Positions 6,997 through 54,084 of a stretch of DNA of 64,000 bases are shown piece by piece. A model generated the notes under the pieces. The model worked only from the letters and a program-made list of their open reading frames with translations. It was not told where the DNA came from and did not search any database. This DNA is from a virus. The stretch lies in the IMG/VR virus record IMGVR_UViG_3300042387_001967; one strand, written 5' to 3'. Positions within the stretch are counted from its first letter, which is position 1. Each line of letters opens with the position of its first letter. The position numbers were made by a program, and so were the translations under genes.

Positions 6997-9900
6997 CTAT
7001 GAAGGCGAAATCTCTACGTCGTCGTAAAGGTCCACTTCTCCCCGTTCGATAGCAGCCATCACGTCGTCGTCCGATGTGAACTTGTGCTTCTTTTGTGGGC
7101 GATTGGCGGGACTCAACATGTTCAGCCCGAGCAAGGTCTCATGCTTGGGATTTGCCATCGTCTTGCTGCGGTCCTTGATGGACCAGAGCATCTTCGAAGC
7201 CATCATCTTCTCGCGCACGTCCCTGACCGCCTCGTCGGTGGTCGGCACGTGCACGCTCATGGTGTTTGAGAGGATCACGCCGTCGGCCGACATGAAGGTT
7301 TCGTAGCCTGGGACGGTGAGGTCGTAGCCGGTTTCGCGGATGCCTGTCTTGTCGACTTCGACGACAGTGGCCCAGGTGATGTGCTCCTGGTCCAGGATGT
7401 CGCGAACCCAAGTCTTGAGCAGGTCCGAGTCCAACGCGCCACGATACACCGGGAGAGCCTCCAGGCGTTCCAGCAGTCTGCGTCGGCGGAGTCCACCCAG
7501 CGCGTCGCCGGCGTGCGCCGCGGTTTTGATGATGGATGCCAACTTGTAAGTCTCAGACCCCTTGTCGTTGTCAGCGGAGAACGGCGCAGCGGTCGCGTAA
7601 ACGCCGGCCCGTAGAATCTTCGCATTCGCGGATGTCAGCTCCACCACCTCGGAACGCAGCAAGGTCAGCGCAGCGTCGCGAGCCGCGACACGCTTGGCGA
7701 GCATCTCGCGCAGATGATCCAAGACTGCGCGCGCGCTCGGACGCGAGATGACACCTTCGTGTTTCCCCTTGGCCCACTGCACGACCATATTCTGCTGGTG
7801 CTTCTTCCAGTCCAGCTCCGGGCTGTCAGTTGTGCGGTCTTCGGCGGTGATCTTGGGATTGACGAGGTCGTGCTGGACGACGTCGAAGACGTTGCGGGGT
7901 ATGACCGCCTTGTTGAACACCGCCGCTGTGTTCTCGCGGACTACTTCCGCTTTGAGGAAGTTCTCACGTTTGTGCTCGGTGGCCAGCCCGGCGAAGAGGT
8001 CTAGCCGCTTGCAGTCCCACGTGGACATTGCGAGCACCCAGCATTCATTCCCGCCGCTGGTTTCCTTCGACCACGTAACCGAAGCACGCACGTCCAGCGT
8101 CATGCAGAGTGCTTGCAGTTCACGAATGAGTCTCAGCGAAGTGGATCCGATGTTAAACACGTTCCCCTTCCCTTCCTCGCCGCCATTCCCGACACTGATG
8201 GATCCGTCGGTGTCCACCATGCCAGTCAGGAACCCACGTCGAAACTCCTCCGGCGCGCGGAACAGGAATCCGGGGACGCGCTTGTTCGCTGCTCCGGATG
8301 TTTTTTCGTCGCGCTCGCCGCCCAGGTGTAACTGCAGAAACGCAGCCACGTGCTCACTTCCGGCGAAGTTGAAGCTGTGCCTGATCGTATCGCCGTATCG
8401 AGCGTCTCCCTCTTCCTTATTCTGCTCGTGGCGGTGATAGTAGAGCGTTCCCGCAGAATCCAGATGCTGTTCGATGAAGGATTTCAGACGCTTTGCGTTG
8501 TCCTCCTTGAGATCGGCGAGATGAAGATTCCGACGCCCCTTCCAGCCGCGCGTAGCGTAGAAATCGTAGTCTTTCTTATCCCACCATCCGTCGCCGCACA
8601 TCGCGCCCATGAACCAGCCCGCGTCGAAGTCCAGGACGATCTGGACGCTGCCCATCTTCACTTCCGCGATCGGTTCCAGTGTTGCTACCAGTTCCCGTAG
8701 GTTTCTCCCGCACGGAACCGCAACCTTTTTCTCCAGCGCATCTGTCGGCGTCCAGCGTCCCATCTCGCCCGTCGTCGGGTCCATGCCGTAGACGGCCCGC
8801 GGGTCGTCATCGGTGAAGGTCTGCCGACGGTTGGACAATGTGACAACCTCGATCGGAGGCGCAGTGTGCTCGCTCCACCCGGCGACGTCGGCCCATACCA
8901 ACGCCCCAGTATTCTCGTCGAATGCGATGACCTTGGTTCCCGGTAGGGCTTTGAAGAACCTGATATAGCTGTTGGTGCCCTGCTTCTCTCCGATGAGTTC
9001 CTCGCTGCGCGGGAAGTCCTCGAGGTCGATCACAGCCACTTCGTGCGTGGTCGGATCAATGTAGGGTAGTTGAAGTTTGTTATACATATCAGCAGCATTG
9101 CCGAGAATCTGAAAGCGGTCAACCAAATATGACGGCAAGGATGAAATTAGGTCGCGCTGAATCGCTGTAACTACCTGATTATGAACTTCGTCCCCGTCAA
9201 AATCGGCGTTCATTCCCTCCGTGATGAAGGTGTTCACCCGAATCGCGTCACCTGGAACAATCCGGGGACGCTGTCCGATCACGTTCGTCCGGTGCCATGC
9301 CGGGGACCTGGTGATCACGACGGGCCGGCGCGGCGTCTCATGCCCCTCCTTGTCGGTCTCCGTGCCCATCTCGTAGTCCAGCGCCTTGCGCGCCATCGGC
9401 GAGCGGTCAGTCAGATGCTTGAGCGCGGCGGCCGGCGCCATGCCGGAACGCACCAGCCGCCGCTGCACGTAGTTGCTGTAGAGCTTCCACGCCATCTCCT
9501 CGGGGATGCCGACGTCGTCCATGCCCAGGTCGGCGTCAGGCACGATGACGCCGCGGCCGACCGTGTCGACCGGCTTGGACAGCATCTTGGAGGCGTAAAA
9601 ACTCGTTTTTGGATTCGTACCGGTGACCATCTTGAAGAACCCCTTCACCTCGCGCGCGCGGGTCTTGGGGTTCGGGCTCTCGCCGTAGCCGTAGGCAGCC
9701 TTGGCCGCGCGCGTCATGTCCATGTAGGCCTCCGCCGCGCCGTCGCGCCCCATCGCCTTCTCCGTGTCGCTGTAGAGCCGGCGATACTCGAGCAGGTCCC
9801 GGTAGACCTCGTTCGAGTCGCCCGGGAGGAACGTGTCGCCGGTAACGCTGAACGGGCGGAACTTCGGCGGGATGACCGGCACGGATGTGAGCATCATGTG

Positions 9901-10131
9901 CTCCGGCCTCAGCTCGTTGACGCGCAGCCCGTGCAGGATGTTCAGCATCCGCACCGCGCGGCTGCGCTTGGTCTTGCTGCCGGCGCGGATGATGTCGCGC
10001 TGTTCCTTTTCGATGTCGTCGATGTTCATCCCCTGCAGCGCTGCGAGGATCGCTTCAGGGCCTGTGGTCGGAGGCGTGGTCATGCGCAGGAGCCTAGCCT
10101 GCTGTCGGCGTCGTGTCGCGCGAAATGTCAC
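6997..10131 (-). CDS. rpoC: multisubunit RNA polymerase beta'-like catalytic fragment (intein-containing)
   Basis: GPEAILAAL...MMLTSVPVIPPKFRP, MLSKPVDTVGRGVIVPD, RSPAWHR, NADFDGD, and after the intein TMSVHVP align with bacterial RpoC; start could instead be ATG 10083. Confidence 0.92.
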   Translation of the reverse strand: MTFRATRRRQQARLLRMTTPPTTGPEAILAALQGMNIDDIEKEQRDIIRAGSKTKRSRAVRMLNILHGLRVNELRPEHMMLTSVPVIPPKFRPFSVTGDTFLPGDSNEVYRDLLEYRRLYSDTEKAMGRDGAAEAYMDMTRAAKAAYGYGESPNPKTRAREVKGFFKMVTGTNPKTSFYASKMLSKPVDTVGRGVIVPDADLGMDDVGIPEEMAWKLYSNYVQRRLVRSGMAPAAALKHLTDRSPMARKALDYEMGTETDKEGHETPRRPVVITRSPAWHRTNVIGQRPRIVPGDAIRVNTFITEGMNADFDGDEVHNQVVTAIQRDLISSLPSYLVDRFQILGNAADMYNKLQLPYIDPTTHEVAVIDLEDFPRSEELIGEKQGTNSYIRFFKALPGTKVIAFDENTGALVWADVAGWSEHTAPPIEVVTLSNRRQTFTDDDPRAVYGMDPTTGEMGRWTPTDALEKKVAVPCGRNLRELVATLEPIAEVKMGSVQIVLDFDAGWFMGAMCGDGWWDKKDYDFYATRGWKGRRNLHLADLKEDNAKRLKSFIEQHLDSAGTLYYHRHEQNKEEGDARYGDTIRHSFNFAGSEHVAAFLQLHLGGERDEKTSGAANKRVPGFLFRAPEEFRRGFLTGMVDTDGSISVGNGGEEGKGNVFNIGSTSLRLIRELQALCMTLDVRASVTWSKETSGGNECWVLAMSTWDCKRLDLFAGLATEHKRENFLKAEVVRENTAAVFNKAVIPRNVFDVVQHDLVNPKITAEDRTTDSPELDWKKHQQNMVVQWAKGKHEGVISRPSARAVLDHLREMLAKRVAARDAALTLLRSEVVELTSANAKILRAGVYATAAPFSADNDKGSETYKLASIIKTAAHAGDALGGLRRRRLLERLEALPVYRGALDSDLLKTWVRDILDQEHITWATVVEVDKTGIRETGYDLTVPGYETFMSADGVILSNTMSVHVPTTDEAVRDVREKMMASKMLWSIKDRSKTMANPKHETLLGLNMLSPANRPQKKHKFTSDDDVMAAIERGEVDLYDDVEISPS
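7264..9189 (-). mobile_element. intein with LAGLIDADG homing endonuclease (642 aa), atypical N-terminus
   Basis: In-frame insert between NADFDGD and TMSVHVP; LAGLIDADG-like blocks GWFMGAMCGDG and GFLTGMVDTDG; C-terminal YDLTVPGYETFMSADGVILSN followed by +1 Thr. Confidence 0.9.
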
Positions 10132-10156
10132 TCACCCGTCGCGCGCCGGCCGTCAT
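10094..10156 (-). CDS. 20-aa mini-ORF bridging accessory operon and beta' gene
   Basis: ATGA overlap with stop of 10153..10602; ends 10 nt before ATG 10083. Confidence 0.3.
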   Translation of the reverse strand: MTAGARRVSDISRDTTPTAG

Positions 10157-10602
10157 CGGACGTTGTTCTTCGCCGTCGCTTTCACGTCCAGGTCGATCTC
10201 GGTCCGTCCGTCCTGCAGTTCGCGACGTGTCAGTACGATGCCGCAGCCCTCCATCCAGTGGAACAGCGGCACTGCATTCGCGCGCGTGGTGATGATTTTG
10301 CTGTCGCATCCCTTCAGGAATCCACGGGACAGGAAGATCGGGCCGTCGCATTTCAGCGCCTTCAGCACAGTGGTCGACAGTTCCACCGCGGTGGCCACCT
10401 GGTCGTAGGTCAGGTGCGGCTCAGGCAGACGACGCAGCGTGGACGGCCACCAAGGCCACCGCCACCACCATCGCAGTTCGCGCACGCCGCCGTCCACTAG
10501 GACGAACGGGCGGCCCTTGCCATACATGCGCCAGACTGGGTCGCCGGCTTTGGTCCTGGCGATCATGTGCCAGCTTTCCGTAGGGTCAGGGTTGTTTTTC
10601 AT
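10153..10602 (-). CDS. hypothetical protein
   Basis: 149-aa ORF, ATGA overlap. Confidence 0.65.
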   Translation of the reverse strand: MKNNPDPTESWHMIARTKAGDPVWRMYGKGRPFVLVDGGVRELRWWWRWPWWPSTLRRLPEPHLTYDQVATAVELSTTVLKALKCDGPIFLSRGFLKGCDSKIITTRANAVPLFHWMEGCGIVLTRRELQDGRTEIDLDVKATAKNNVR

Positions 10603-10835
10603 GCTTCGATTTTTTCGAGGAACGCGACGATGTCGTCGATGGTTTTGAAGAAACGCTCTTCGTCCTCGGATATGATGATGTCGTATTCATCCTCGAAGGC
10701 CATGAGGACGTCCACGTCGTCGTGCTCGTCAATTCCGATGTCGGTCAGCTTGTTGACTTTCGCGACGGCGGCTTCGGACTCGCCGGTGAACTCGCTCAGG
10801 ATTCTGATGGCGTCGGTGCGGTAGTTTTTTGTCAT
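10599..10835 (-). CDS. acyl carrier protein homologue lacking the Ppant serine (DSL->DEH)
   Basis: DIGIDEHDDVDVLMAFEDEYDIIISEDEERFFKTI aligns without gaps to E. coli AcpP [35 protein letters not shown]; alternative GTG start at 10898. Confidence 0.8.
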   Translation of the reverse strand: MTKNYRTDAIRILSEFTGESEAAVAKVNKLTDIGIDEHDDVDVLMAFEDEYDIIISEDEERFFKTIDDIVAFLEKIEA

Positions 10836-10894
10836 TGTGATGGTATTGTTGCGGCGGTCAACGCCGACAGTTTGAATTTCACCCACTCGCAGCG

Positions 10895-11134
10895 TCACCA
10901 GGTCTCCTCCCCTGTCGCGTCCGCTTCGAGGCGCGCAATCTTCGTGAGCTTGCGCAGCCTCTTGCGCTTCGCCGAGGCTTCCGGCCCCCTTTCGCAAAAC
11001 CCGACGTTCAGCCCGGTGGCGATCAATTTCTGACGCAAGACGGCGTCGTTCAGATCGTCCGTAGCATGAGGCACCCATCCCTTCGCCATTTTGCGGCCGT
11101 TCTTGTCGCGTGGAACGCTGCGTTTCGTCGTCAT
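10895..11134 (-). CDS. hypothetical basic protein
   Basis: MTTKRSVP...; ATGA overlap. Confidence 0.6.
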   Translation of the reverse strand: MTTKRSVPRDKNGRKMAKGWVPHATDDLNDAVLRQKLIATGLNVGFCERGPEASAKRKRLRKLTKIARLEADATGEETW

Positions 11135-11958
11135 ACCTCCTCCCCCGGCGCCAGCACCCGCACGACCTTGAACGAGTTCACGCAGAACCCATACTCGTCG
11201 GACAGCCAGTCCGACACCGCGCTGTCGTCCGCCATCGCATCCTCCATGCCCGTCTCCACGTCCCACAGACGCACGACGACCTGCTTGGGCGGGTCGACCA
11301 CATCAACTCCATCGGGGTTCGGGTCGTCGCCATCGTTCGTCAGATCCCAGTCCACTTCGAGCAGGACGCGCGGACTCTCATCCGGGTCCTGTACCTGGAT
11401 GACCCAGTCCGGGTTCTCCGCCGGCTTCCCGGTGATGATGTAGTAGAGCCGGTTGACGAAGTGCATACCGTTCACGATGCAGAACTCCCCGTCGTCGTCA
11501 TCCATCGCCGTCCAAACACGGTTCTCTTTGACCGCTTCGTTGAGGGCGCGCAGGTCGTCCGCATCAGTCCAGTCGCGCTGTCGGACGCCGTCGCCTTCCG
11601 GGGTCTGCTCCGGGCGGTAACGCGCGATGAACTGGTCATCGGTCAGATGCAGCAGCAGCCCGTGCATCGGCTCGGCCGGCCCCAGCCTCATGCGCAGCAG
11701 TGCCAGGACGTCGTTGCCGCATGCGTCGATGAGCTGGATGTCCACGCCGAACTCCTTGTAGATGTCACGACTCGCCGTCGTGATGTCGATTGCGTCCAGC
11801 CGGAGGCTGCTCTTGATGTCGGCTGACAAGTCGATCCGATCGATGTCGTCTTTCCTCCTGATGTTCGCCGCGACGGCGAGGATTTCGCGCAGTTTGTGCG
11901 CGCGTGGGTCGAGTGTAGTCATTGTGGTTTTGGTAGTCATTGTGGTTTTGGTGCTCAT
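11131..11958 (-). CDS. multi-module protein with N-terminal ACP-like domain (DSL->DAI)
   Basis: IDLSADIKSSLRLDAIDITTASRDIYKEFGVDI keeps the ACP spacing A-x5-L-x2-D-[S]-x-D-x10-E-F-x3-I; acidic C-terminal modules. Confidence 0.6.
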   Translation of the reverse strand: MSTKTTMTTKTTMTTLDPRAHKLREILAVAANIRRKDDIDRIDLSADIKSSLRLDAIDITTASRDIYKEFGVDIQLIDACGNDVLALLRMRLGPAEPMHGLLLHLTDDQFIARYRPEQTPEGDGVRQRDWTDADDLRALNEAVKENRVWTAMDDDDGEFCIVNGMHFVNRLYYIITGKPAENPDWVIQVQDPDESPRVLLEVDWDLTNDGDDPNPDGVDVVDPPKQVVVRLWDVETGMEDAMADDSAVSDWLSDEYGFCVNSFKVVRVLAPGEEV

Positions 11959-12236
11959 GCTCCGTAGGGTGTGATGGCCAGAACGCATTCACGCCCGCCG
12001 ATCAGGACGGTCTCCAGTTTGCTGCCGCACATATTTTCCAGGTTCTCCAACCAGTAGTTCCAGTCGTCGTTGACCGCTTCGTGGACAGCTCCGCGGACGG
12101 CTCCTCCTGCAACGACTTCGACAGCCTCCACGTGGAAGCTCTTCCCGGCGATGCTGATTACGCTCTTCCAGTAATGCGGCACGCACTCCCGCATTTCGAG
12201 CTCTTCGTTCCCGATGATGATTGTGGCCGTGTTCAT
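11955..12236 (-). CDS. hypothetical protein
   Basis: MNTATIII...; overlaps neighbours. Confidence 0.65.
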   Translation of the reverse strand: MNTATIIIGNEELEMRECVPHYWKSVISIAGKSFHVEAVEVVAGGAVRGAVHEAVNDDWNYWLENLENMCGSKLETVLIGGRECVLAITPYGA

Positions 12237-12562
12237 TCGCCGGCCTCCGACGGCTGCCCGGTGGACACCGAGGTGATGTTGCGCCACCAGCGGTCAGGCA
12301 GCGGCGAGCCCGGGGGTTGCAGCAACACTCCGGCGCTGTGCGTCGTGATTGACGCTTGGCGTTGGGCAGGCATCGGCATGCCGGCCCAACCCGCGCAGTA
12401 GTTCTGGCACGTCGGGCAGTGCAGAGCTTCAGCAGACGAGCCGTGGTCGTGAGACTCGTCGCCGTATGGTCCGCCGCCGTCTTCGTCGCTGGTTGCGGTC
12501 AGGCGCCAGCGTCCGGTGGGTTGTCCGTTCTTTGCGATCTGCAGGGGTTTGATGATAAACAT
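12233..12562 (-). CDS. hypothetical protein with H/C putative metal-binding residues
   Basis: MFIIKPLQ...HDHGSSAEALHCPTC; A/C-rich leader. Confidence 0.6.
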   Translation of the reverse strand: MFIIKPLQIAKNGQPTGRWRLTATSDEDGGGPYGDESHDHGSSAEALHCPTCQNYCAGWAGMPMPAQRQASITTHSAGVLLQPPGSPLPDRWWRNITSVSTGQPSEAGE

Positions 12563-12590
12563 GGTTTTGATTTCTGAGTGTGGTCCCGCC

Positions 12591-12720
12591 GTTGAAGTGT
12601 GGGAGTGAGTCGCCCCGCCCCTCCCATGAAATGGGCGACTGCGGCGCACGCCTTTCCACCAAGATTTTGTCTTGAGCGTTCGCCGGCGTGAATGCCGGGC
12701 AACTCACTCCACACTTCAAC
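12591..12720 (-). ncRNA. putative structured RNA / cis-regulatory element
   Basis: ~24-bp closing stem (12720-12697 with 12615-12591; a G.U pair works only on the minus strand) enclosing several hairpins; intergenic. Confidence 0.55.
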
Positions 12721-12922
12721 GTCGCACGAAGTCGCAGTCCTTCAACGCGAATTGTTTCATCTGACCGTCCTCGGTGTCCACGGCTTCGAGCAGCCACTGG
12801 TCCTCCGGGTGCCACTCTGTGCGGCCCCAAAAGATGCGCACCGGACGGATTTCCCGGCATCGCTCGACGCCGCGCCAGTTTCGGTAGCACACCGGCAGTG
12901 TGGCCGGCTCACCAGTCTCCAT
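12716..12922 (-). CDS. stand-alone WYL-like domain protein
   Basis: YRNWRGVERCREIRPVRIFWG...QWLLEA...KQFAL follows the WYL pattern Y..G..R.I.P......W[YL]L.A......F. Confidence 0.65.
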   Translation of the reverse strand: METGEPATLPVCYRNWRGVERCREIRPVRIFWGRTEWHPEDQWLLEAVDTEDGQMKQFALKDCDFVRR

Positions 12923-13073
12923 CGGGATACTCCTGCCGGGCACTTGCCCAGCGCGCGCGCTCCTCGAATGTGGTCTCTCGTTTGTGCTCGCTCAGTGCGC
13001 CGTTCGGGTTCGCCAGCCAGCTGCGCAGAGCTTCCCTCTCTGCACAATCCAACTTCACGATGTGCTCGTTCAT
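12909..13073 (-). CDS. hypothetical protein
   Basis: MNEHIVKL...; ATGA overlap. Confidence 0.5.
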   Translation of the reverse strand: MNEHIVKLDCAEREALRSWLANPNGALSEHKRETTFEERARWASARQEYPDGDW

Positions 13074-13660
13074 GCCTTCACCTCCGCCAGCTCGTTCATG
13101 ATCAGCAGCTGCCCGTGGTGCTCGTAGGGCGTCCACTGGCAGCCCTCCGGCAGCTTGCCGGCCAGCGTCGTCATCGCCCCATACCACGTCTCGCCGATGT
13201 CCGTGTGCGCCCGCAGCGCCCGGTAGAACGTCGGCAGGCCGGCGCGGTAGCCACGCCACACCCTGGTCGGATGCCAGAAGCCGGCGCTGCCGCGTCGCAG
13301 GATGGGCCCCAGCGCCGCCAGCAGCTCCTCGTGCGTCAGGTCGTTGCCCTCGTTGTCGTCGCCCCAGATGAACAGCCGCTCCGGGTAGAACGCGGATGAC
13401 TCGTTGTCGCCACTGATCAGTGGTCGCCCGTTGCGCATCCCTTCCGAGAGGAACGCGTAGTGATGCTCCTTGGCGTCGTCGTCGACCCGCCACCCGTAGG
13501 GCGTGGCGATGCCGGCCGCGATGCGATCGGGCCTGCCCTTGATGGGGAACACGTGGTCGCCCTGTGACGTAGTCACTCCCTTGGGCGGCATGTCCGTCGA
13601 CAGGTTGTACATGGACTGCATGAAGCCCCACATGGCTCCGCTGAGCTGAATTACTTTCAT
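13070..13660 (-). CDS. hypothetical protein
   Basis: 196-aa ORF, overlaps both neighbours. Confidence 0.7.
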   Translation of the reverse strand: MKVIQLSGAMWGFMQSMYNLSTDMPPKGVTTSQGDHVFPIKGRPDRIAAGIATPYGWRVDDDAKEHHYAFLSEGMRNGRPLISGDNESSAFYPERLFIWGDDNEGNDLTHEELLAALGPILRRGSAGFWHPTRVWRGYRAGLPTFYRALRAHTDIGETWYGAMTTLAGKLPEGCQWTPYEHHGQLLIMNELAEVKA

Positions 13661-14553
13661 TGCTGTGTTGGGTTGTCGAGTTCGCGTTCACGTTTGCGCA
13701 AGATCTTCCGCAACTTGAGAGACGCTTCGTTTTGGATCTGCCTGATGCGCTCCCGTGTGAGGCCAACCTTTGTCCCGACCTCATCGAGCGAGAATCCATC
13801 AGCGCGCATCCGTATTATGAGACGTGCGCGCGCGTCGAGTTCGGACAGGCTCTCCTCCAGCAATTCCAGCGCTACAGGCTCCCGATACTCCTCCGCTGCT
13901 ACGTCTCTGGCGGCACGCAGCGGGCGGGCGAATGTGAGCGGTCCTTCCGGGAGTTCGCCTGACACGATGCGGGTATGAGTTCTGATGCGTTCCTGAGCGC
14001 GGTCTGGAGTCAGTCGTCCATCGGGACAGCATTCGCGACAGATGAACATACCAACACGCTGGCTCTTTCCGCGGCTATGGCCCTTGCTGCGGGGTCCGTG
14101 GATGATGACTCCGTTCTTGACCGGCACTCCAGTCGCGCGCACCTCGCAGTAAGCGCACTTGAGACCCCTATTTGCTGGAGGCCTGCCTTCAGCGATGGGC
14201 TTTTCGCGGCGTTTTGCGGCTGCAGCCAGGCCGCTCTCGGACTGGTTGTATCGACGCGTGTACTCGGGGTTTCGTTTACCGTTGATCCTAGAAGGTATGC
14301 CGTATTTCAACGGTTGGCGCATTCTCGCATTTGGATGCTTCTTGCGGTAATACCAGCGCTGATATGCGGGATTCTGCTTACCGTCGACCAGGCAGGGAGG
14401 AGCACCTTCGGCGCGTGGCTTGCGAGGTTTGACTCCGAGGACATTACGAGCATACCAGACATGGTAGGCTGGATTCCCGCGCCCATCTGGAAGCTTGCTT
14501 TTCGGTTTCTCGTTGGCTGCGTTCGTGCTCATGTCTGACGTTGATGCGATCAT
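13657..14553 (-). CDS. sigma70 region-4 HTH protein with N-terminal NPxY repeats and Cys cluster
   Basis: C-terminal FSLDEVGTKVGLTRERIRQIQNEASLKLRK; three [DN]GxxNPxY repeats; CAYC...CREC. Confidence 0.75.
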   Translation of the reverse strand: MIASTSDMSTNAANEKPKSKLPDGRGNPAYHVWYARNVLGVKPRKPRAEGAPPCLVDGKQNPAYQRWYYRKKHPNARMRQPLKYGIPSRINGKRNPEYTRRYNQSESGLAAAAKRREKPIAEGRPPANRGLKCAYCEVRATGVPVKNGVIIHGPRSKGHSRGKSQRVGMFICRECCPDGRLTPDRAQERIRTHTRIVSGELPEGPLTFARPLRAARDVAAEEYREPVALELLEESLSELDARARLIIRMRADGFSLDEVGTKVGLTRERIRQIQNEASLKLRKILRKRERELDNPTQQ

Positions 14554-14585
14554 TTGAGTTCGCGTTTGTTGATTCTCCTCGCTGC

Positions 14586-15080: not shown

Positions 15081-15306
15081 GGTTGAGATGGGCGTCCTCG
15101 CGGTCGCCGTCGATGTAATCCCGGCACGTCGGGCATGTGACCTCGGTGCGCAGGTTGGTCCAGAGCAGGTTCCACGTGCGGTTGTTGCACAGCGGTCGCC
15201 CGCCTTTCCTAGGGTCGTGTTGATCGACGCCGATGCGCAGATGCACGACCTCCTGCTCTTTCCCGTTGGGGAACGGTCCGTCTGGGTTTCCGCGACTTGT
15301 AATCAT
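15070..15306 (-). CDS. hypothetical protein
   Basis: MITSRG...; ATGA overlap. Confidence 0.55.
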   Translation of the reverse strand: MITSRGNPDGPFPNGKEQEVVHLRIGVDQHDPRKGGRPLCNNRTWNLLWTNLRTEVTCPTCRDYIDGDREDAHLNHEY

Positions 15307-16473: not shown

Positions 16474-16483
16474 TGGAGTTTTT

Positions 16484-19051: not shown

Positions 19052-19079
19052 AGTGTTTTGATTGTTACCAGGCAAAGTT

Positions 19080-19436: not shown

Positions 19437-19470
19437 ATTGGTCGGGTTGTTTTCATCGCCTCACAGATCG

Positions 19471-41375: not shown

Positions 41376-41433
41376 GGTTGGTTGGTTGGTTGGTTGGTTA
41401 GTTGGCTTGGTTCCTCTTTGGTATTCATACCGG

Positions 41434-41664: not shown

Positions 41665-41668
41665 ACGC

Positions 41669-43685: not shown

Positions 43686-43688
43686 GTT

Positions 43689-46950: not shown

Positions 46951-47239
46951 TTGCAGCCTCGTGGATGTTGCGACGCGCAGCCTCGGACAGTTTGGGCCAG
47001 GCGGCCGCAAGGTCCGAGTCGTATTCCCCGGACGTGACGACGGGCTCCTCGATGGTGCCGTCGCTGCCGTCACCGCCTAGCGGCTTGGCGTTTCTGGCCT
47101 TGTATGCCTCCTCCAGGGTAGCCCACAGTTCGCTGTAGGTGGCGTCCGTGAGTCCGGAGACGCACTCGGCGACTTCGTCGACGGAGTGATATCGGAGTTT
47201 CCCGGGCGGTTGTGTGATGTCGATGTTTCTCATGCTCAT
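46940..47239 (-). CDS. hypothetical protein
   Basis: 99 aa. Confidence 0.65.
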   Translation of the reverse strand: MSMRNIDITQPPGKLRYHSVDEVAECVSGLTDATYSELWATLEEAYKARNAKPLGGDGSDGTIEEPVVTSGEYDSDLAAAWPKLSEAARRNIHEAANAN

Positions 47240-47280
47240 GCTTGTGATTGTGATTGTGATTGTGATGTTGTTGCGCTCAT
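47236..47280 (-). CDS. 14-aa coupling mini-ORF MSATTSQSQSQSQA
   Basis: ATGA overlaps at both ends; built from (CACAAT)4. Confidence 0.4.
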   Translation of the reverse strand: MSATTSQSQSQSQA

Positions 47281-47702
47281 CCGCCGACCCCCTGAGCCCT
47301 CAGCCACTGCGAGGTGCTGAATGTCCGAGCCTCCGTCGCCGTGATGTATGCCGCGCCGCCGCCGTAGGCATCCGTCCTGGGCTTGGAGCAGTCGTTCGAC
47401 CACTCGAACGAGACCGGCTCGGTCATGTCGAACTTCTGCATGAGATGCCGGATGAGCTTGATGATCTCGTCGATGCACCCGCACTCGCTGTGAATACAGA
47501 TCGACCTGTCGCCCTCTTTCTTGATGTCGAAGTTCCAGTTTTCGTCCTCGGCGTCCTTCTCCCAGCCTTTGGGTATGTCCGTTTCCGGCTTGTCGCCGTT
47601 CGCGCAATCAGCCATCGCCTGCGCTAGTTCGACGGCATACTGGACAGCTTCCGCAGACGGAAGCGCCAGTTCCATGCTCACATTTGTGTAATAATCAGCC
47701 AT
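47277..47702 (-). CDS. hypothetical protein
   Basis: 141 aa. Confidence 0.7.
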   Translation of the reverse strand: MADYYTNVSMELALPSAEAVQYAVELAQAMADCANGDKPETDIPKGWEKDAEDENWNFDIKKEGDRSICIHSECGCIDEIIKLIRHLMQKFDMTEPVSFEWSNDCSKPRTDAYGGGAAYITATEARTFSTSQWLRAQGVGG

Positions 47703-47716
47703 AATAATCAGCCATT

Positions 47717-48463
47717 TTATGTTTCGCGCAGAAGCACGATTTGTAGTTGTGGTTGTACCTGGTGCGACAATCCGGTGGACGAGTAGTAAACGCTGGCCAT
47801 CAGCGGTCGCATATCGATGTCGAAATACTCCTTCGCGTAGTTCTGCACCCAGTGAGGAATGCCGCGCACCTTCAGATTGCTGGTATACTTGTCCTCGCCC
47901 CTGGCGTCGTAAAACGCCAACGGAAGGTCGTAGGACAGATCCGTCAATTCGTCCATGGTCTCCGGCCGTCCGCGACGCAATGAGACGGTCAGCAGCAGCA
48001 TGCCGCCGACTGCCAGAAGTTCGTTGCGAAACATGGCGGCGATGTCTTCCTTCTTCTCCTTGGACCAGGTTCCCATCCAGTCCAGGTAGATAACGTCATA
48101 AGGCCGGCGCCTGGTCGTCAGGTCCGCGAAGCTGCGGAAGTCAACCGGACCAGCGGTCATCTTGAAGTGTTGCGGCAGAGCCTCGCCGAACTTGGCGGTC
48201 TTCTTGTGAATCCTCGGATCCCGCTCGAGCCCGAGGAATTCCATCTTAACGTCCGGGAAGTCACTTGCCAGCGCCTGCTCCCACACCCATGTCTGCGCAG
48301 GGAAGGACAGTATCCGCAGTCGCTTCTTCATTCGGCGATACTGTCGCATCAAATCAAACGCCATGGACCGATACAGCATGGCGTCTGCCAATCGCTTGGA
48401 GGTGTTCAGTCCCCATGCTATACGGCTGGGGTCGACGGTTTCTTTCTGTAGCTTCGGCTTCAT
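47717..48463 (-). CDS. class I SAM-dependent methyltransferase-like protein
   Basis: LRILSFPA, FLGLERD, YDVIYLDWMG spacing suggests a Rossmann MTase fold. Confidence 0.5.
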   Translation of the reverse strand: MKPKLQKETVDPSRIAWGLNTSKRLADAMLYRSMAFDLMRQYRRMKKRLRILSFPAQTWVWEQALASDFPDVKMEFLGLERDPRIHKKTAKFGEALPQHFKMTAGPVDFRSFADLTTRRRPYDVIYLDWMGTWSKEKKEDIAAMFRNELLAVGGMLLLTVSLRRGRPETMDELTDLSYDLPLAFYDARGEDKYTSNLKVRGIPHWVQNYAKEYFDIDMRPLMASVYYSSTGLSHQVQPQLQIVLLRET

Positions 48464-49440
48464 GCGTTGGTTGGTGTGAGTAGATACACCTCGTAGTCGC
48501 CATCGCGGATGCAGTCGTGCTCCTTCAGCGTGTCCCGGAAGCCGTCCTTAATCTCCTCGATGTCACTCGGCGATGTTTCGTCAGTCACCGGATACAGGTT
48601 CTCCAAAGCACACTGCACCGCATACCGCAGAGCTTCCTCCTCGGTCGCGTGCAGGCTGACCGATGGTCTCTGGCAGATGACCTCGCAGACGATGTGCTGC
48701 CCTGCGCCCTCGAACCAGCCCTCCAGCAGCCTGCGCCAGGCGGTCCGATCGGCGCGAATGAACGGCTTCAGCTGGCAGCCCAGTTTCTCGGTGAAGTATT
48801 CCAGCATGAACTTAGGCACAGACACTGCGCAGTCGGCGTGATGCTGATCCACTTCCCGCGGGTCAACGCCGGCTTTGTATGCCTCGCCCAGCATCTTGAC
48901 ATACTCCGTCATCACGCCGCACCACTCGATCATGGAATGGATGCCGCACTGGGCGCCCAGCGCGTAATAGGAAGATGCCAGATCCCTCGCGCGCTGAAGC
49001 GCCTCCTCCGCTGAGGTAGGCGACACCCCGGAGTTGCTCCAGGTCGGCGCGCGAAACACGAACGGTTCCATCAGTCCGGTCGCCGCGCGTGGCGTGGCTG
49101 GCTCGGCGTGGTCCAAGTAGTTCCGCAGGCGCTCCTGCAGCCTGGCTAGATATTCCTCGCACAGATCCAGCACGTCGGACAGACGTCCGCGCATGCCCAG
49201 ATCCCGCAGCGCCACGCTGGCGATCTCCATCAGCTCGTTCAGCTCCGTGTCCGTGAACGGCGGAATCTCCGGCAGCTTCTCCTGCCCGCAGTTCAGCCGC
49301 TCACACAGGTCTCCGATTTCGTCCTCCGTGGGCAGCGGCAGTCTGCCGCTGTCGGTGGCGATGTCGTCGATATCACGATGGTTGCCGACAGTCGACTGGT
49401 AGCAGCGCAAGGCTGCCAGGATGGTGTGGATGTGGTTCAT
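48460..49440 (-). CDS. hypothetical multi-module protein
   Basis: MNHIHTILAALR... Confidence 0.65.
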   Translation of the reverse strand: MNHIHTILAALRCYQSTVGNHRDIDDIATDSGRLPLPTEDEIGDLCERLNCGQEKLPEIPPFTDTELNELMEIASVALRDLGMRGRLSDVLDLCEEYLARLQERLRNYLDHAEPATPRAATGLMEPFVFRAPTWSNSGVSPTSAEEALQRARDLASSYYALGAQCGIHSMIEWCGVMTEYVKMLGEAYKAGVDPREVDQHHADCAVSVPKFMLEYFTEKLGCQLKPFIRADRTAWRRLLEGWFEGAGQHIVCEVICQRPSVSLHATEEEALRYAVQCALENLYPVTDETSPSDIEEIKDGFRDTLKEHDCIRDGDYEVYLLTPTNA

Positions 49441-49871
49441 TCTTTGAATGTGATGGTGGTGCGGTTGCCGATTGTGCACATGTTGAACTCGCCCTTGGCT
49501 GCCCGTCTGCCAATGGTGTCGATCTGCTCCTGTGACCAGACGGTGTCCTCGGTGCCAATGAGTTCACACACTTTCTGCACCTGCCGCAGATCCATGGCCA
49601 CGTAGGCCGGGTGGTGCGGTAGGTCGACCGACGATATTCTGACGATGGCCAAGGCAGGCGACCCCAGATTTTTCTCAAGTTTGCGCTGCACTTCCTCCCT
49701 GACCTCACGCTTTCGCCTGGCTGCGTCATACACGACCTGACGTGCCTCTTCTTCCCGCTTTGCTTCTTCTCCGTGTTCGCCGCGGAGCGCCTCCTCCGAG
49801 CGCTCTATAGCGCGGTCAATTTCGTCATCTTCGATTTCCTGGTCGGTGGGACCATTGTTGCTATCACTCAT
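49437..49871 (-). CDS. hypothetical protein
   Basis: 144 aa; CAA-repeat leader. Confidence 0.65.
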   Translation of the reverse strand: MSDSNNGPTDQEIEDDEIDRAIERSEEALRGEHGEEAKREEEARQVVYDAARRKREVREEVQRKLEKNLGSPALAIVRISSVDLPHHPAYVAMDLRQVQKVCELIGTEDTVWSQEQIDTIGRRAAKGEFNMCTIGNRTTITFKE

Positions 49872-49960
49872 TTTTGGTTGTTGGGGTTGTTGGGGTTGTT
49901 GTTGCGGTTATTCGGTGGTCCTCAGATTGGTGCATTAGATGGTGAGCCATCTACTCGATC

Positions 49961-50167
49961 TCATAGCTTCTCCGGGTCCGGCACGTAGCCGCATCCTTCC
50001 ATGGCGCCGTCGATGCCCTTGGCGCGCAGTGCCTTCTTGATGACGCCCTCCTTCGCTGAGCACTCCAGGCAGATGGCGTCATTGTTGAACCACGACATGA
50101 TGCGTGCGATCAGTTCGTTTGGACACCGAGCGCACTTGTTCGCGGCGAAGAACGGGTCTGGTGTCAT
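49961..50167 (-). CDS. small Zn-finger-like protein
   Basis: CARC...CLEC. Confidence 0.6.
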   Translation of the reverse strand: MTPDPFFAANKCARCPNELIARIMSWFNNDAICLECSAKEGVIKKALRAKGIDGAMEGCGYVPDPEKL

Positions 50168-50217
50168 GCTGCTGGGCAGTCGCGGCGCGCGGTTAGATCT
50201 GAATTGTTGACCTGCTG

Positions 50218-51060
50218 TTAAGCGCATTGGGTTGATGTGTGTTTGCTAAATTCCTCCAGGATCTGCAGCGCCGGGAGATGCCGGTATTTCTCGAAGCCTT
50301 TCGCCTCCAGCTGCTCTACGCCGGGTCGATGGTCCATGGAAGACTGCAAGTCAGCAGCATCGCCGCCGGCGGCAATCACGGCAGAACGCAGCCCGGCGCC
50401 GAAGCCTGCGATCATCAGATCCCACTCGGCTATCTCGCCCACCAGCGCCTGCAGGTCACGATCATCCCAGTAGCCAGACTCGTCGCTGACGCGTGCCAGA
50501 ATTCCAAGTTCCTTGGCCTTGTCCAGAATGGCGATGACGCACAGATGGCACTCGAGGAAGTGCTTCAGCCCGCCGCAGCGGGGGTCGTTGGCATACTGCG
50601 TCTTGCAGAATGAATTCCACCGCCAGGTCGCACCTTCCGCCTTCAGCTTCTTTCCGTTGAAAATCCTCGATCTGGGAAACCGCACCAGACCGAAGTTGGC
50701 AGCCTCGCAGCCTTCGCCCGGCCACGTGCTGAACCCATGGAACTCCTGCGCGTGGATGTCGACCGATCGCCTGTAGCCCGACGCCTTCTCGCGCGGCGTG
50801 GTCACATCCACCGAGTCGCGCAAGCCCTGAATTGCCCACCAGCGAAAGGACTCTGCGTCCATGTCGTCCGGCAGTTTTGGATACGTCTCTGCCTTGTTGT
50901 AGTCCACGTCGGCGCCTCCGCTGAACACGCCGGAGACGGTTTCGAACGGAAGGTCCATCGCGAATGATCCCAACGCGGCGATCGCGTCGAGCGCTTTCTT
51001 GCTCCCTGCTTTTGTTGCCGGCGCTTCGAGCGCCAGGTCGTAGTGTACGGTGAGTCCCAT
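50218..51060 (-). CDS. hypothetical protein
   Basis: MGLTVHYDL...FCKTQYAN... Confidence 0.7.
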   Translation of the reverse strand: MGLTVHYDLALEAPATKAGSKKALDAIAALGSFAMDLPFETVSGVFSGGADVDYNKAETYPKLPDDMDAESFRWWAIQGLRDSVDVTTPREKASGYRRSVDIHAQEFHGFSTWPGEGCEAANFGLVRFPRSRIFNGKKLKAEGATWRWNSFCKTQYANDPRCGGLKHFLECHLCVIAILDKAKELGILARVSDESGYWDDRDLQALVGEIAEWDLMIAGFGAGLRSAVIAAGGDAADLQSSMDHRPGVEQLEAKGFEKYRHLPALQILEEFSKHTSTQCA

Positions 51061-51218
51061 ATTGTAATTTTTTTCGGTGTGAGAACAGCGGTTTCCCGTC
51101 TGCTCCCGTCGGTGTGAGTTCCACTTCGATGTCGTCCTTGGGAACCTTCCCATGATTGCGCCACCAGATTGCATGCCTCAGCTGCTTCACACTCTTGCCG
51201 CGGGCATACATCCAGAAC

Positions 51219-51320
51219 TCACAGGCCAATAATCACAGGAGCCCGCGCGTCCAGCAGGCGTTGCATTTCGGCAGGAATCAGGATGTTCGCTGACACCGTG
51301 ACTGTCTTTGCTGCGCTCAT
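51219..51320 (-). CDS. short ORF, possibly frameshifted gene
   Basis: MSAAKTVTV...; ATGA overlap with def. Confidence 0.35.
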   Translation of the reverse strand: MSAAKTVTVSANILIPAEMQRLLDARAPVIIGL

Positions 51321-51844
51321 GACTTCGCCGCCTTGCACGTCGCCATGGCCTCGTCGCGCAGCACTGGCGTGCCGGATTGTAGAAGAGTGATGCCGCGGAG
51401 GTGGTCGTGTTCGTGCTGGAACACGCGTGCCGGCAGACCGGTCAACTTCTTGTCCGCGATCTTGTGCCCCTGCTCGTTGGTCCAGGACGCCAGGATGACG
51501 TGTTCGCGTTCGACGCGGAACTGCCGTCCGGGTAGGGACAAGCAGCCTTCGACGTCGGTGACCTTGACCGACTTGGGCCCGGGGCGCCAGGTCGGGTTGA
51601 CGCACAGGTGCGCGACGCTCGAATTGACGTTCCCGGAGGACGTGACTCTGGCGCTCGCGGCCAGGAAGAAGAAATTCTCCCGCAGGCCGACCTGGTTCGC
51701 GGCGAGGCCGCATGCGGACTTCTCACGGGCGAGCCGCATCAGGTCCGGGCGGTAAGCGCGTATTGCCGCTGGGTCCGATTGTATCCCGGTCAGGTCTTCT
51801 CCGAGAATGTTGTCGCGCGTGTTGATCAGTTTTATGGTTATCAT
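51317..51844 (-). CDS. def: peptide deformylase
   Basis: GLAANQVG, EGCLS, QHEHDHLRG motifs. Confidence 0.93.
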   Translation of the reverse strand: MITIKLINTRDNILGEDLTGIQSDPAAIRAYRPDLMRLAREKSACGLAANQVGLRENFFFLAASARVTSSGNVNSSVAHLCVNPTWRPGPKSVKVTDVEGCLSLPGRQFRVEREHVILASWTNEQGHKIADKKLTGLPARVFQHEHDHLRGITLLQSGTPVLRDEAMATCKAAKS

Positions 51845-51854
51845 GGGTACAGCA

Positions 51855-51888
51855 AGAAGGCGTCCACGTGTACACGTGGACGCCTTCT
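51855..51888. repeat. perfect 34-bp palindrome
   Basis: AGAAGGCGTCCACGTGT|ACACGTGGACGCCTTCT, intergenic. Confidence 0.9.
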
Positions 51889-51912
51889 GAAAGAGGTTAA
51901 GTTGTGGTCCGA

Positions 51913-52134
51913 CTAGACGGCCTGAGCGATGCTCGCTTCGGCTTCCTCGATCATCAGACCGGTGCCCAGCATGCGAGCGAGGGTCGCGACCTTCGTCAGC
52001 TGCTCGTCTTCGCGCGGCCAGCCGGCGGCGAGGAGCTCTTGCTGCTGCGGCGAGGCCGAGGCAGATTTTTCCAGGGTGGAGAATCCGGAACGAACAACAG
52101 CCCCGGTGATTTGGAGAAGCGCGAGATTAGTCAT
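51913..52134 (-). CDS. small putative virion protein (K-x-A motif family)
   Basis: LEKSASAS, LTKVATL. Confidence 0.55.
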   Translation of the reverse strand: MTNLALLQITGAVVRSGFSTLEKSASASPQQQELLAAGWPREDEQLTKVATLARMLGTGLMIEEAEASIAQAV

Positions 52135-52170
52135 GGCGGAATCCTACGCCAGCCGGTCTCGCAGCTCAAG

Positions 52171-54084
52171 CTATTTCTGCATGACATCCGCCAGCGGCAC
52201 ACGCCCAGCGAGGACGTCCTCGAGCTGCTGCTTCGTCAGTCCCATCATCGTGCGCGCGGCGTCTTCCATCGCTGGATTGAGGATGGGCCGCGGCAGACGA
52301 ATGCGGCCCCACCGCTCTCCATTCAGCAGCCGATTGTCGAAAAGGCCACCGGGGATCGGTGTCAGGTTGCGAAGATTTACCATCTCGCCGTTTTCGACGT
52401 CGATCGGATCGCGCTCGTCCAGGTCGCCGTCCGTGAATGGCGCGAGGCGATACTTGCCCTTGCCGGAGTTGCGCGTGTTGATGCCGGCGCCCGCCAGCAG
52501 CGCGCGGAACTTGTGCCAGACAAACGGCTCGCCGATCTTTGGTAGCGTCTTGTCCGTGCGCAGTGCCATCCAGAAGTCGTGATTCTTCTGCCCGCGGATT
52601 GTGGCATTCTCCCGCATCAGCGAGTAGGCCCCGCTGGACAGTGTTGCAAAATTCTCGAGACCCGAGAAGCGTTTGGCCTGTGCGAATTCGCCACCGCCGC
52701 GCGTCGGCTGCTGATTCTGGTCGTAGCTGCCCGTGCCGCGGGCGCTGATCTTGCCTTCCGACGTGTGGTGGAGCTTGTGGACGAAACCGTAGCCCACCGT
52801 CACCGGCGCATCCAGCGTCCGGCCTTCTTCCGGATCGTAGACCATCTCCTGTGACTGCACGCCATTCTCGCGTTCCAACTGGTCGATGTAGTCGTTCCAG
52901 TTTTGTCCCTTCGGCAGGTAGCTGGGCAGCTTCAGCGCGTGCCCCAGCTTCTTGGCGACCTTGCCGAGCCGCAGCTCGTGCTGTGACGCCGGGTTCGCCC
53001 GGGAGACCAGGGACAGCGGATTGAGCAGCGCATCCAGCGGCTGTCCGTCCTCCGTCCGCGGCATCTGGTCGTCGGGAATGATCTTCGAGACGGTCGCCTT
53101 GGCGCCCTGCCGCAGCACGATCTTGTCTCCGACTTCCGTCGGCTTCAGGAATTTCAGCACCACCTTGTAGCCGTTCTTGGTCGCGCGCGCGGCGATGACC
53201 TGGGCCGGCTGCTGTCCGTGCCACACCTGAGCGGCGTCGCGGCGCTGCTGCCTCAGCGCCTTGCTGAGGCGCCCGATGTTTGCGCCGTCTGACGACAGCG
53301 TGCGAGGCATCGTCGCGAGCATGACGGGGTCGCCAGACTCCAGCACGGTGCCAGGTCGCACCAGCCCGTGTTCGTCAAAATTTTCCAGCTTCTCCTTGGT
53401 GAAGCGGTTCGGGAAGAGGGCGCGGTAGTGGCTGAGACCTGTCTTCAGATTGTCCGAGCGGTCCTGGTGCATCACCTTGTATTGGACGGCGGACAGGCGC
53501 TTGGCGAACGACTCGCTGACAGGCATGGCGTCGTCCATTCCGAAGCCCTTGAATGGCACCAGAGCGATGCGGGCGTTCAGCCCCATGTTTTGCACGCCGT
53601 TGTCGTCCGTGTAGGACGATGCTGCCATCATCTGCCCGGGTTTGAAGGTGTCACCTTTCTTGAGCAGTGCGCGGGAGGTTATGCCCGATTTCTGGTTGAA
53701 AAATTGTTCGTTGTACAGGTCGACGTCCGCCGTCTCGCCGTCATCGTAGGAGACGCGGATGTAGTCCGGCGTGACGCTGATGACGCGACCGGCACGCTTG
53801 GCGCGGACGGCGCCCATGTTCTCGCCGACGATTTCGTCAAAGCTGCGCCCTTCGGGGTCGGACGTGTCCAAGTTCTGGATCAGCGGAGCTTCGCCCTTGT
53901 CGATCGCCAGCGCCTGGTTCGCGAACCGCGCGCCGTAGAACAGCCGCGGCGCTTGCACTGCTCCCGCCAGCGGAATCATGTTGGTGTGTGACCCAAACTG
54001 CTGCGAGGGCGAGGACAGCTCGTAATCGACATCCGGATCGTCATCCGGCACCTCTTCGAGGCGGTTGTTGCGTACGACGTGCAT
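52171..54084 (-). CDS. rpoB: RNA polymerase beta C-terminal half fused to beta' N-terminal segment
   Basis: TNMIPL..RLFYGARFANQA, GMDDA, VGDKIVLRQGAKATVS, LLNPLSLVSRAN, HKLHHTSEGKISARGTGSY..QQP match RpoB; tail GGLFD..ERWGRIRLPRPILNP..GLTKQQLEDVL matches the RpoC N-terminus. Confidence 0.9.
   Translation of the reverse strand: MHVVRNNRLEEVPDDDPDVDYELSSPSQQFGSHTNMIPLAGAVQAPRLFYGARFANQALAIDKGEAPLIQNLDTSDPEGRSFDEIVGENMGAVRAKRAGRVISVTPDYIRVSYDDGETADVDLYNEQFFNQKSGITSRALLKKGDTFKPGQMMAASSYTDDNGVQNMGLNARIALVPFKGFGMDDAMPVSESFAKRLSAVQYKVMHQDRSDNLKTGLSHYRALFPNRFTKEKLENFDEHGLVRPGTVLESGDPVMLATMPRTLSSDGANIGRLSKALRQQRRDAAQVWHGQQPAQVIAARATKNGYKVVLKFLKPTEVGDKIVLRQGAKATVSKIIPDDQMPRTEDGQPLDALLNPLSLVSRANPASQHELRLGKVAKKLGHALKLPSYLPKGQNWNDYIDQLERENGVQSQEMVYDPEEGRTLDAPVTVGYGFVHKLHHTSEGKISARGTGSYDQNQQPTRGGGEFAQAKRFSGLENFATLSSGAYSLMRENATIRGQKNHDFWMALRTDKTLPKIGEPFVWHKFRALLAGAGINTRNSGKGKYRLAPFTDGDLDERDPIDVENGEMVNLRNLTPIPGGLFDNRLLNGERWGRIRLPRPILNPAMEDAARTMMGLTKQQLEDVLAGRVPLADVMQK

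Follow-up and report, generated by a model that had tools for sequence, protein, structure and literature searches.

An RNA polymerase chain encoded in two pieces 42 kb apart in an environmental phage, parted in a loop of the β′ clamp

A 64,000-nt stretch of viral DNA (IMG/VR record IMGVR_UViG_3300042387_001967), called the window here at its full length, encodes two proteins that resemble successive parts of a bacterial-type RNA polymerase (RNAP) and lie far apart. The question raised by this locus is whether they are pieces of one polymerase chain, how they were parted, and how they could still make an enzyme. The window has ~61% GC, and nearly all of its long open reading frames (ORFs) with high GC at the third codon position (GC3) are on the minus strand. 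The two proteins, P0002 and P0001, were found to cover consecutive segments of the β and β′ subunits, and the gap between them, put at ~42 kb in the first-pass annotation of this DNA, measured 42.1 kb (10084-52170). We consider it likely that a single polymerase gene was cut in a loop of the β′ clamp, that the pieces are not rejoined but assemble non-covalently, and that the spacer is a zone of turnover.

Two consecutive segments and the loop between them

The closest phage match for both pieces was gp206 of Salmonella phage Arash, a 1525-aa protein annotated as 'beta subunit'. The two loci contain the following features, with the β′ segments before and after the junction named N1 and N2.

52465..54084, minus strand: RNAP β C-terminal half (catalytic DPBB/Rpb2_6); P0002 residues 1-540, aligning to Arash gp206 496-~1040
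52171..52464, minus strand: β′ N1, fused in frame to β; P0002 residues ~541-637, with the stop codon at 52171-52173
9190..10083, minus strand: β′ N2 N-extein, from the ATG at 10083 (MTTPPTTGPEAIL) through NADFDGD; assigned by Rpb1_2, phmmer and the junction alignment
7264..9189, minus strand: intein-like insert of 642 aa with a LAGLIDADG domain, directly after NADFDGD
6997..7263, minus strand: β′ N2 C-extein, TMSVHVP..., 88 aa plus stop; aligning to Arash gp206 1426-1525

P0002 (52171-54084, minus strand, 637 aa) matched Pfam RNA_pol_Rpb2_6 (PF00562) over residues 130-463 with 153.8 bits against a cut-off of 23.4. P0001 (6997-10131, minus strand, 1044 aa) matched RNA_pol_Rpb1_2 with 68.9 bits against a cut-off of 25.3, together with LAGLIDADG_3 and a sub-threshold match to Intein_splicing, and phmmer comparison with β′ chains in the PDB gave E-values from 1e-30 to 1e-23. 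RNA_pol_Rpb1_1 stayed below its cut-off on P0001 (21.6 versus 39.7 bits) because domain 1 is divided between the two proteins. The catalytic motif NADFDGD (P0001 residues 308-314) is intact and is followed by the 642-aa insert and then by TMSVHVP... up to the C-terminal end, ~85 residues past the active site; the next part of β′ is a separate gene in relatives. Both peptide strings quoted in the first-pass annotation were present at the claimed coordinates on the minus strand. The β′ locus that it gave, 6997..10131, stands as a locus, but the start probably has to be moved from GTG 10131 to ATG 10083 (MTTPPTTGPE...), since the ortholog in the relative G002 and the relatives of 385-386 aa begin there. 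In G002, the upstream GTG extension is broken by a stop codon.

The two pieces had been proposed to be consecutive segments of β′ around a variable loop, and alignment to Arash bore this out. In a tblastn search, residues 496-1119 of gp206 matched all of P0002, residues 1148-1440 matched P0001 23-316, and residues 1426-1525 matched the C-terminal extein of P0001, with an identity of ~30% across every segment. Both segments are continuous in Arash, in Vibrio phage D69 and in further IMG/VR loci, so relatives with the contiguous fused gene do exist. In the junction alignment, P0002 ends with ...LEDVLAGRVPLADVMQK and the β′ piece starts with MTTPPTTGPEAIL, and in contiguous relatives a variable loop of 10-35 residues joins the corresponding positions. 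There was no overlap, and no conserved block was lost or duplicated: beyond the homologous stretch there are only 9 residues at the end of P0002 and 6 at the start of P0001.

The position of the cut was then read from bacterial β′. Residue 23 of P0001 aligned with E. coli β′ 180 and Thermus thermophilus β′ 456 (phmmer, PDB). A profile of contiguous relatives and both window pieces matched bacterial β′ at ~19-64 and ~100-471 with an E-value of 1e-74, with a gap of 25-31 residues exactly at the junction and with the zinc ribbon skipped. By this profile N1 corresponds to E. coli β′ ~19-64 plus 100-140, and by phmmer against the PDB the N2 N-extein corresponds to 180-464 of E. coli and 456-744 of T. 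thermophilus β′. When the N1 tail (109 aa) was searched alone with phmmer against the PDB it gave noise only, and the profile of contiguous relatives was required. These alignments place the cut between E. coli β′ ~140 and 180, or just before 456 in Thermus numbering. The loop is a structurally permissive surface loop of the β′ clamp, because in Thermus and Deinococcus a non-conserved domain, which we take to span ~285 residues, is inserted there.

The β C-terminus passes in frame into β′ at about P0002 residues 540-545, and P0002 is, as judged from this alignment, the surviving piece of a β-β′ fusion. The contiguity of distant relatives and the junction kept in P0002 support the first-pass proposal that an ancestral β-β′ gene was broken in this loop. 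The zinc ribbon (four Cys, E. coli residues 70-88) is missing, as the profile skips β′ ~65-99 and P0002 541-637 has no cysteines; it is likewise absent from contiguous Arash-type relatives. GGLFD, W592 and NP..E are invariant in N1 among split-type homologs (34-83% identical). P0002 is 99% identical in G001 and G003 and 83% identical in G002, and its stop codon is kept in all three and in G012.

Distribution of split forms and the history of the break

An exhaustive HMMER search with P0002 returned 1085 representatives at E<1e-30, and the top 150 of these (50% identity) were classified by BLAST against four segments. Full β + β′N fusions of the Arash type accounted for 84, another 31 started at β-C and ran contiguously through N2, and 34 started at β-C and stopped at most 40 residues after N1, as P0002 does. 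The last one, P0208, has β-N fused and yet stops after N1. Many of the 150 carried one to three intein-sized inserts. Stand-alone β′N2 proteins of 360-415 aa formed more than 140 clusters in a word-indexed search and were 43-97% identical to the window's piece. Among the best 80 IMG/VR loci found with a β′N2 profile, β-C/N1 homology lay within the 3-kb upstream flank in 70, and the other 10 had no β-C within 3 kb. Two of those 70 (G013 and G014) are actually split, and the spacer of G014 holds small membrane-type ORFs. Five IMG/VR loci have both segments in direct succession; a single frame was confirmed for L011-L014, in which the genes resembling Arash gp206 and gp216 adjoin. The spacers between the two pieces had the following lengths.

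G013 and G014: 1.6 kb
G005: 12.1 kb
G004: 19.8 kb
G012 (71% identical): 21.9 kb
G007: 29.4 kb
Window: 42.1 kb
G008: 56.3 kb
G010 and G011: 58.5 kb
G002: 60.3 kb
G006 and G009: ~65 kb, pieces on opposite strands

In contiguous members of the clade the loop is lengthened to 35-45 residues, and L037 (427-4101, plus strand) encodes a contiguous 1224-aa βC-β′N protein with a ~220-aa insert of unknown fold in the cut loop. Two further proteins, P0146 (~640-1010) and P0150 (~1010-1470), have an insert of 380-465 aa with an HExxH motif (HEMRH or HEFRH) in exactly this loop, which by its motif may be a metallopeptidase-like passenger inside the polymerase clamp. Such loop inserts are further evidence that the site tolerates almost anything.

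A maximum-likelihood tree of intein-stripped βC+N1 from 56 clade members and 5 outgroups was built with IQ-TREE and replaced a FastTree topology; homologs containing inteins were aligned after the domains found by hmmsearch had been cut out. The split or contiguous state changes at least four times on this tree, and all four changes are forced by well-supported branches. Constraining all split forms together cost 169 log-likelihood units (approximately unbiased test, p 0.0001), and a single origin of the split is rejected. The contiguous state is found in every outgroup and in P0192/P0193, the clade's earliest branch. Because P0002 still holds the β/β′ fusion junction, the polarity is fused first and split later.

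Within the clade, the opposite polarity would make the β-C-initial ancestor already split and the contiguous P0144 group, P0172 and the P0181 group re-fusions. We regard this as unlikely, though worth weighing, as the backbone is poorly resolved and either history needs at least four changes. Spacers of 1.6 kb do exist, and a deletion there could rejoin the frames; the linkers of contiguous forms also hold both tail-like (ELPxxL) and head-like (IPTTGP) motifs. However, the earliest branch and every outgroup have the contiguous state, re-fusion is impossible with pieces tens of kilobases apart, and for fission it is enough that a tolerant loop acquires a stop and a start. We find repeated fission more economical as an explanation and infer fission over re-fusion for most of the state changes.

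Another explanation is that the gene is decaying, the fragments being remnants in a phage that uses the host RNAP redirected by its own sigma-like protein. A sigma70-region-4 protein is indeed encoded in the block, the zinc ribbon of β′ is missing, and the active-site insert in the window's β′ piece is non-canonical. This insert starts with E-V (not Cys or Ser) right after NADFDGD, ends with ILSN before Thr and lacks the block-B His. In relatives, this site is occupied by homologous inserts whose first residues are QC.., C.., AN.. or TY.. and whose last are SN before T or (Q/Y)D before S; if the Cys of P0182 is intein residue 1, the window's copy would have Val at this position. The insert appears to be recent, because it is missing from the contig L111 (β′N2 cluster 97% identical) and from G002, and it would either splice unconventionally or disable this copy. 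Decay is nevertheless very improbable. All pieces have open frames and are conserved among relatives that range from 45% to 99% identity, their catalytic and structural motifs do not vary, and NADFDGD is intact. The split form occurs in at least 35 clusters at 50% identity and in more than 140 at 90%, which is far too old and too broad for pseudogenes, and the loss of the zinc ribbon is common to the contiguous Arash-type proteins that are packed in virions.

The two pieces could also belong to different RNAP sets, each with its own partner elsewhere, as phages of the phiKZ and AR9 types encode two split sets (PMC7598289, PMC7824862). This alternative, already named in the first-pass annotation, is highly improbable. 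Each of five complete split relatives (G002, G004, G005, G006 and G007, all CheckV 100%) has one Rpb2_6 and one Rpb1_2 locus, β-N and β′-C searches of the complete relatives found a single copy of each further segment, tblastn of Arash gp206 and gp216 against G002 gave one match per segment, and the pieces abut residue for residue. By these searches the enzyme is a single one, made up of at least five polypeptides, namely β-N, β-mid, βC+β′N1, β′N2 and β′C. The multi-piece enzyme foreseen in the first-pass annotation was correct, whereas its number of at least four polypeptides was too low. The window was searched for β-N, β-mid and β′C and contains none of them, in line with the earlier statement that the N-half of β and the C-half of β′ are absent from it. 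Homology with G001 places β-N and β-mid 4-7 kb beyond the window end, and β′C is a separate gene in the five complete relatives and in Arash. With the arbitrary linear start of the G002 and G007 records allowed for, the five pieces lie on one strand in N-to-C order in G002, G004, G005 and G007, over roughly 75-113 kb or more, and the order in the window and G001 agrees for the pieces that they contain. In G006 and G009 (IMG/VR 3300023022_000001 and 3300028481_000003), the β′N2 gene is on the strand opposite to the other RNAP pieces; in G006 it is located after β′C, and the collinear order is broken.

An assembly artefact, the 42-kb block having been misplaced between halves that would adjoin or run on continuously in the true genome, is largely refuted and barely credible. 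G001, the nearest IMG/VR contig (127 kb), has ~94% nucleotide identity and follows window 11253-64000 collinearly apart from many small indels; it stops at 11253, just short of the β′ piece, which is why the whole of P0001 found no match in it. L111, an ENA contig of 38 kb, is collinear with window 4374-20561, across the β′ piece plus 10 kb of the block. The two contigs overlap, and together they tile the entire interval independently of the window. In the complete genome G002 (200 kb), both genes are likewise found on a single strand, with 60.3 kb between them. The split recurs in G004, G005, G007, G008, G010 and G012, each of them, like G002, assembled separately, with spacers that range from 12 to 60 kb, and the conserved stop codon at the end of N1 points the same way. 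Misassembly had been a concern from the start, and by these comparisons the 42.1-kb layout is not one.

Rejoining of the halves, whether by split-intein trans-splicing, by trans-splicing of RNA or by a programmed event that removes the 42-kb block like the skin element of sigK, is next to inconceivable even in a genome rich in inteins, as the 9 and 6 non-homologous end residues are too few for intein halves, an Rfam scan of the window found no intron or other RNA family, the borders share no direct repeat of at least 8 nt within 220 nt (1.3 expected by chance in shuffles), no recombinase was found among the ~36 larger ORFs scanned, and the pieces of G006 and G009 are on opposite strands. Direct or inverted repeats at the two borders did not exceed chance, and a scan of the window for tRNAs found none.

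Several points weigh against the reading of a single cut gene with a spacer grown between its pieces. The direction of the state changes within the clade is unsettled, with a polytomy in the backbone, and some contiguous forms could be re-fusions. Growth of the spacer in place is deduced from collinearity, and the inverted, out-of-order β′ piece of G006/G009 points to rearrangement too. The single copy in the window's own phage is deduced from its relatives. Finally, the active-site insert lacks the canonical Cys/Ser1 and the block-B histidine, and if it is unable to splice, this copy of the enzyme might be inactive.

Assembly of the pieces and comparison with known polymerases

In the ancestral state, gene 1 would have encoded β and the N-part of β′ through NADFDGD and gene 2 the C-part of β′, which is how Arash and most relatives still have it. 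The fused gene would then have been cut several times in the subclade of the window, here between E. coli β′ ~140 and 180, leaving β-C and ~95 β′ residues on one polypeptide and the next ~385 β′ residues on another. The pieces would be translated separately and would assemble non-covalently, like split archaeal, cyanobacterial and phiKZ-type subunits. The break would then have become a zone of gene gain and turnover, 1.6 to 60 kb long in relatives, with the N-to-C order mostly kept. More tentatively, and with considerable doubt on our part, the β′ break may be not just an accident that was tolerated but a way, specific to this lineage and used repeatedly, for the genome to grow: one and the same loop of the clamp would have been opened several times independently, each opening would have become a landing zone for fast-turnover genes (0-60 kb), and a genome of ~200 kb would have ended up between the collinear pieces of one 'exploded' polymerase gene. 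If that is true, no new polymerase could be assembled before the piece that is placed last, at the block's far end, had been made, which could possibly act as a built-in timer.

The co-folding proposed in the first-pass annotation was run for N1 (P0002 residues 520-637) and N2. The predicted complex scored 0.74, and the best of three controls scored 0.00; the mark used is reached by 58 of 80 solved complexes and by 2 of 110 mismatched pairs. The runs agreed in at least 80% of the contacts, the partner had a pLDDT (predicted local distance difference test) of at least 76, and the strand ERWGRIRLPRP of N1 was paired with the strand VPVIPPKFRP of N2. The model indicates that N1 and N2 can adopt the native packing; it is a statement of fold compatibility that says nothing on binding, and the pass may come from likeness, because structures of intact β′ have already been solved. 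Mass spectrometry of Arash virions found gp206 and gp216 to rank with their most abundant proteins (PMC10585845), and by analogy the enzyme is probably packaged in the virion.

The β′ piece is separated from the preceding ORF by 69 GC-rich nucleotides that hold no consensus promoter or terminator, and could be transcribed by read-through from the block. Co-transcription is not required, since the pieces of G006 and G009 are on opposite strands. Scans of 6-16 kb for promoter and terminator consensus sequences gave counts equal to those in shuffles and are without power at this locus. When k-mers were searched for a promoter motif of the phage, nothing promoter-like was found, only repeated 9- and 10-mers, which we take to be coding repeats, likely from the tail-fibre-like gene at 824-3994.

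Natural splits of RNAP subunits in non-conserved surface loops, with active non-covalent assembly, are known from archaea (A′/A″ and B′/B″) and from cyanobacteria and plastids (gamma/β′). Fragments of E. coli β and β′ reportedly reassemble, as found in the Severinov laboratory. The cellular splits are elsewhere in the subunits, and unlike the pieces studied here their genes stay adjacent in one operon. We know of no natural split at E. coli β′ ~140/180, a site known to us only as the Thermus/Deinococcus insertion point. In Helicobacter and Wolbachia, rpoB-rpoC fusions make β and β′ one polypeptide. The bacterial genes remain whole, whereas here all that is left of the fusion is a junction inside one fragment.

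Genes in pieces also arise in T4-like phages through the insertion of mobile endonucleases (Aeh1 nrdA split by mobE; T4 gp39/gp60), and their products still assemble. As in those phages, an enzyme gene is found here in separately translated parts in a lineage rich in homing elements, with LAGLIDADG inteins in β and β′ and a GIY-YIG gene beside the β′ piece of L111. In contrast to them, there is no endonuclease gene in the 1.6-kb spacer of G014, and the spacer has here grown to 42-60 kb.

The window comes from a phage of ~60% GC with a large genome, in a broad environmental lineage with one bacterial-type multisubunit RNAP. Probably this lineage corresponds to the 'mReC' group (Weinheimer and Aylward 2020), and Arash is a distant relative in culture. 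The mReC group, caudoviral contigs whose β and β′ are picked up by the cellular COG0085/COG0086 models and branch apart from cells, was described from metagenomes as a deep-branching, RNAP-encoding caudoviral lineage, in a screen that required hits of at least 800 aa (PMC7481178); because of this requirement, the screen would exclude split forms. The window shares with Arash and mReC a bacterial-type β and β′ recognisable by Pfam and PDB searches, a β C-end fused to β′, the absence of the β′ zinc ribbon, a separate gene for the β′ C-part, and a sigma-like factor, of which Arash encodes two. In Arash and most relatives, however, β and β′N are one protein of 1450-1525 aa next to or near β′C, whereas here there are four pieces over tens of kilobases. 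Neither the mReC paper (PMC7481178) nor the Arash paper (PMC10585845) mentions a β-β′ fusion, inteins or fragmentation, and neither the fusion nor this fragmentation turned up in a limited literature search, which is not proof of novelty.

Split and dispersed RNAP genes are established in jumbo phages of the phiKZ/AR9 type (Sokolova et al. 2020, PMC7598289; Iyer et al. 2021, PMC7824862). The present system resembles theirs in having four or five catalytic polypeptides from dispersed genes and no alpha or omega; one form of theirs is packaged in the virion, as is probably the case here. In both, β′ is also split shortly after the DPBB and active site, as in cyanobacterial rpoC1/rpoC2, P0001 ending 88 residues past the insert. 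Theirs are two paralogous sets without a sigma factor; here, five complete relatives point to one set, and a Sigma70_r4 protein is encoded at 13657-14553. The phiKZ/AR9 enzymes are very divergent from cellular RNAP and contiguous relatives are not known, whereas here the β/β′ fusion junction is kept, β′ has an extra split at ~140/180, and both contiguous and intermediate forms can be compared. The site of the split, the persistence of the fusion junction, the graded spacers, the collinear spread of pieces and the recurrence all appear to be new.

The origin of the split polymerase genes of large phages is an open question. Intron mobility followed by rearrangement was suggested as a speculation (Sokolova et al. 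2020, PMC7598289), and the pieces of the phiKZ type were argued never to have been joined (Iyer et al. 2021, PMC7824862). The present lineage shows all stages together, from the fused gene through an enlarged loop, a loop with foreign domains and a 1.6-kb split to splits of 12-60 kb and an inverted piece. With the polarity fixed by the kept junction, the process becomes testable by phylogenetics and reconstitution. The clamp site is also a new permissive site in β′ for protein engineering, and a large, fragmented branch of phages that encode an RNAP has escaped homology screens that filter by length.

The intervening block, inserts and neighboring genes

The first-pass annotation counted about 80 small same-strand genes between the two pieces. 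Nearly all genes of the block are indeed on the minus strand, but the count was too high, as a crude call filtered by GC3 gave 51-62 ORFs with a median of ~164 aa. Nor is the block, called accessory in that annotation, purely so. Its annotated genes are as follows.

10084..52170, minus strand for nearly all genes: spacer block of 42.1 kb, ~51-62 ORFs by the crude caller
13657..14553, minus strand: sigma-factor-like protein, 298 aa; Sigma70 region 4 (PF04545, 40.6 bits versus 24.1), PHROG 351/1740 RNA polymerase sigma factor
16484-18562 and 35074-36903, minus strand: two proteins of 692 and 609 aa with a weak N-terminal GHKL ATPase signature
31146..33347, minus strand: NAD-dependent DNA ligase, 733 aa; PF01653 199 bits plus OB fold and BRCT; syntenic in G002
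38490..40658, minus strand: C5 cytosine DNA methylase, 722 aa; PF00145 85.8 bits; 70% identical and syntenic in G002
51317..51844, minus strand: peptide deformylase, PF01327 95 bits; second gene downstream of βC-β′N1

The sigma70-region-4 gene, which the first GC3-based gene call had missed, is located 3.5 kb upstream of the β′ piece and is kept in L111. The peptide deformylase gene has the same position in G002 and G012, and the two GHKL-signature proteins are conserved in G002 with 40% (16484-18562) and 69% (35074-36903) identity. In all, 28 genes are common to this spacer and the 60-kb spacer of G002, and they are collinear. G012 shares 3 of the window's spacer genes, G007 shares 4 in a differing order, and G004 and G005 share none. 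By these comparisons, spacer content is conserved only among close relatives and gene turnover is rapid.

On the other side of P0002, 54088-56469 on the minus strand encodes a protein of 793 aa, in which residues ~130-224 form a GNAT acetyltransferase domain. The protein is not an RNAP segment; its gene ends 3 nt before the βC-β′N1 gene, and the two are probably co-transcribed. Beyond the window end, β-mid homology in G001 (71093-72694, minus strand) is broken by ~1 kb relative to G002 (72248 to 71245), which may be another insert or intein.

In this lineage, β-C very often carries inserts of intein size, with length clusters at ~630, ~1000 and ~1400 aa and up to 2900 aa in full fusions. In L010, β-C is broken by three ~1-kb interruptions. 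L012 has the catalytic motif SGDYDGN in place of NADFDGD at ~10830-10873, just before an intein at the same site. In L111, a GIY-YIG-like gene with a faint Pfam match is found at 11106-11966 on the opposite strand, corresponding to window ~6392-6952, and overlaps the 3′ end of the β′ piece. The window has unrelated sequence at this position, and the comparison suggests mobile endonuclease turnover beside the RNAP piece.

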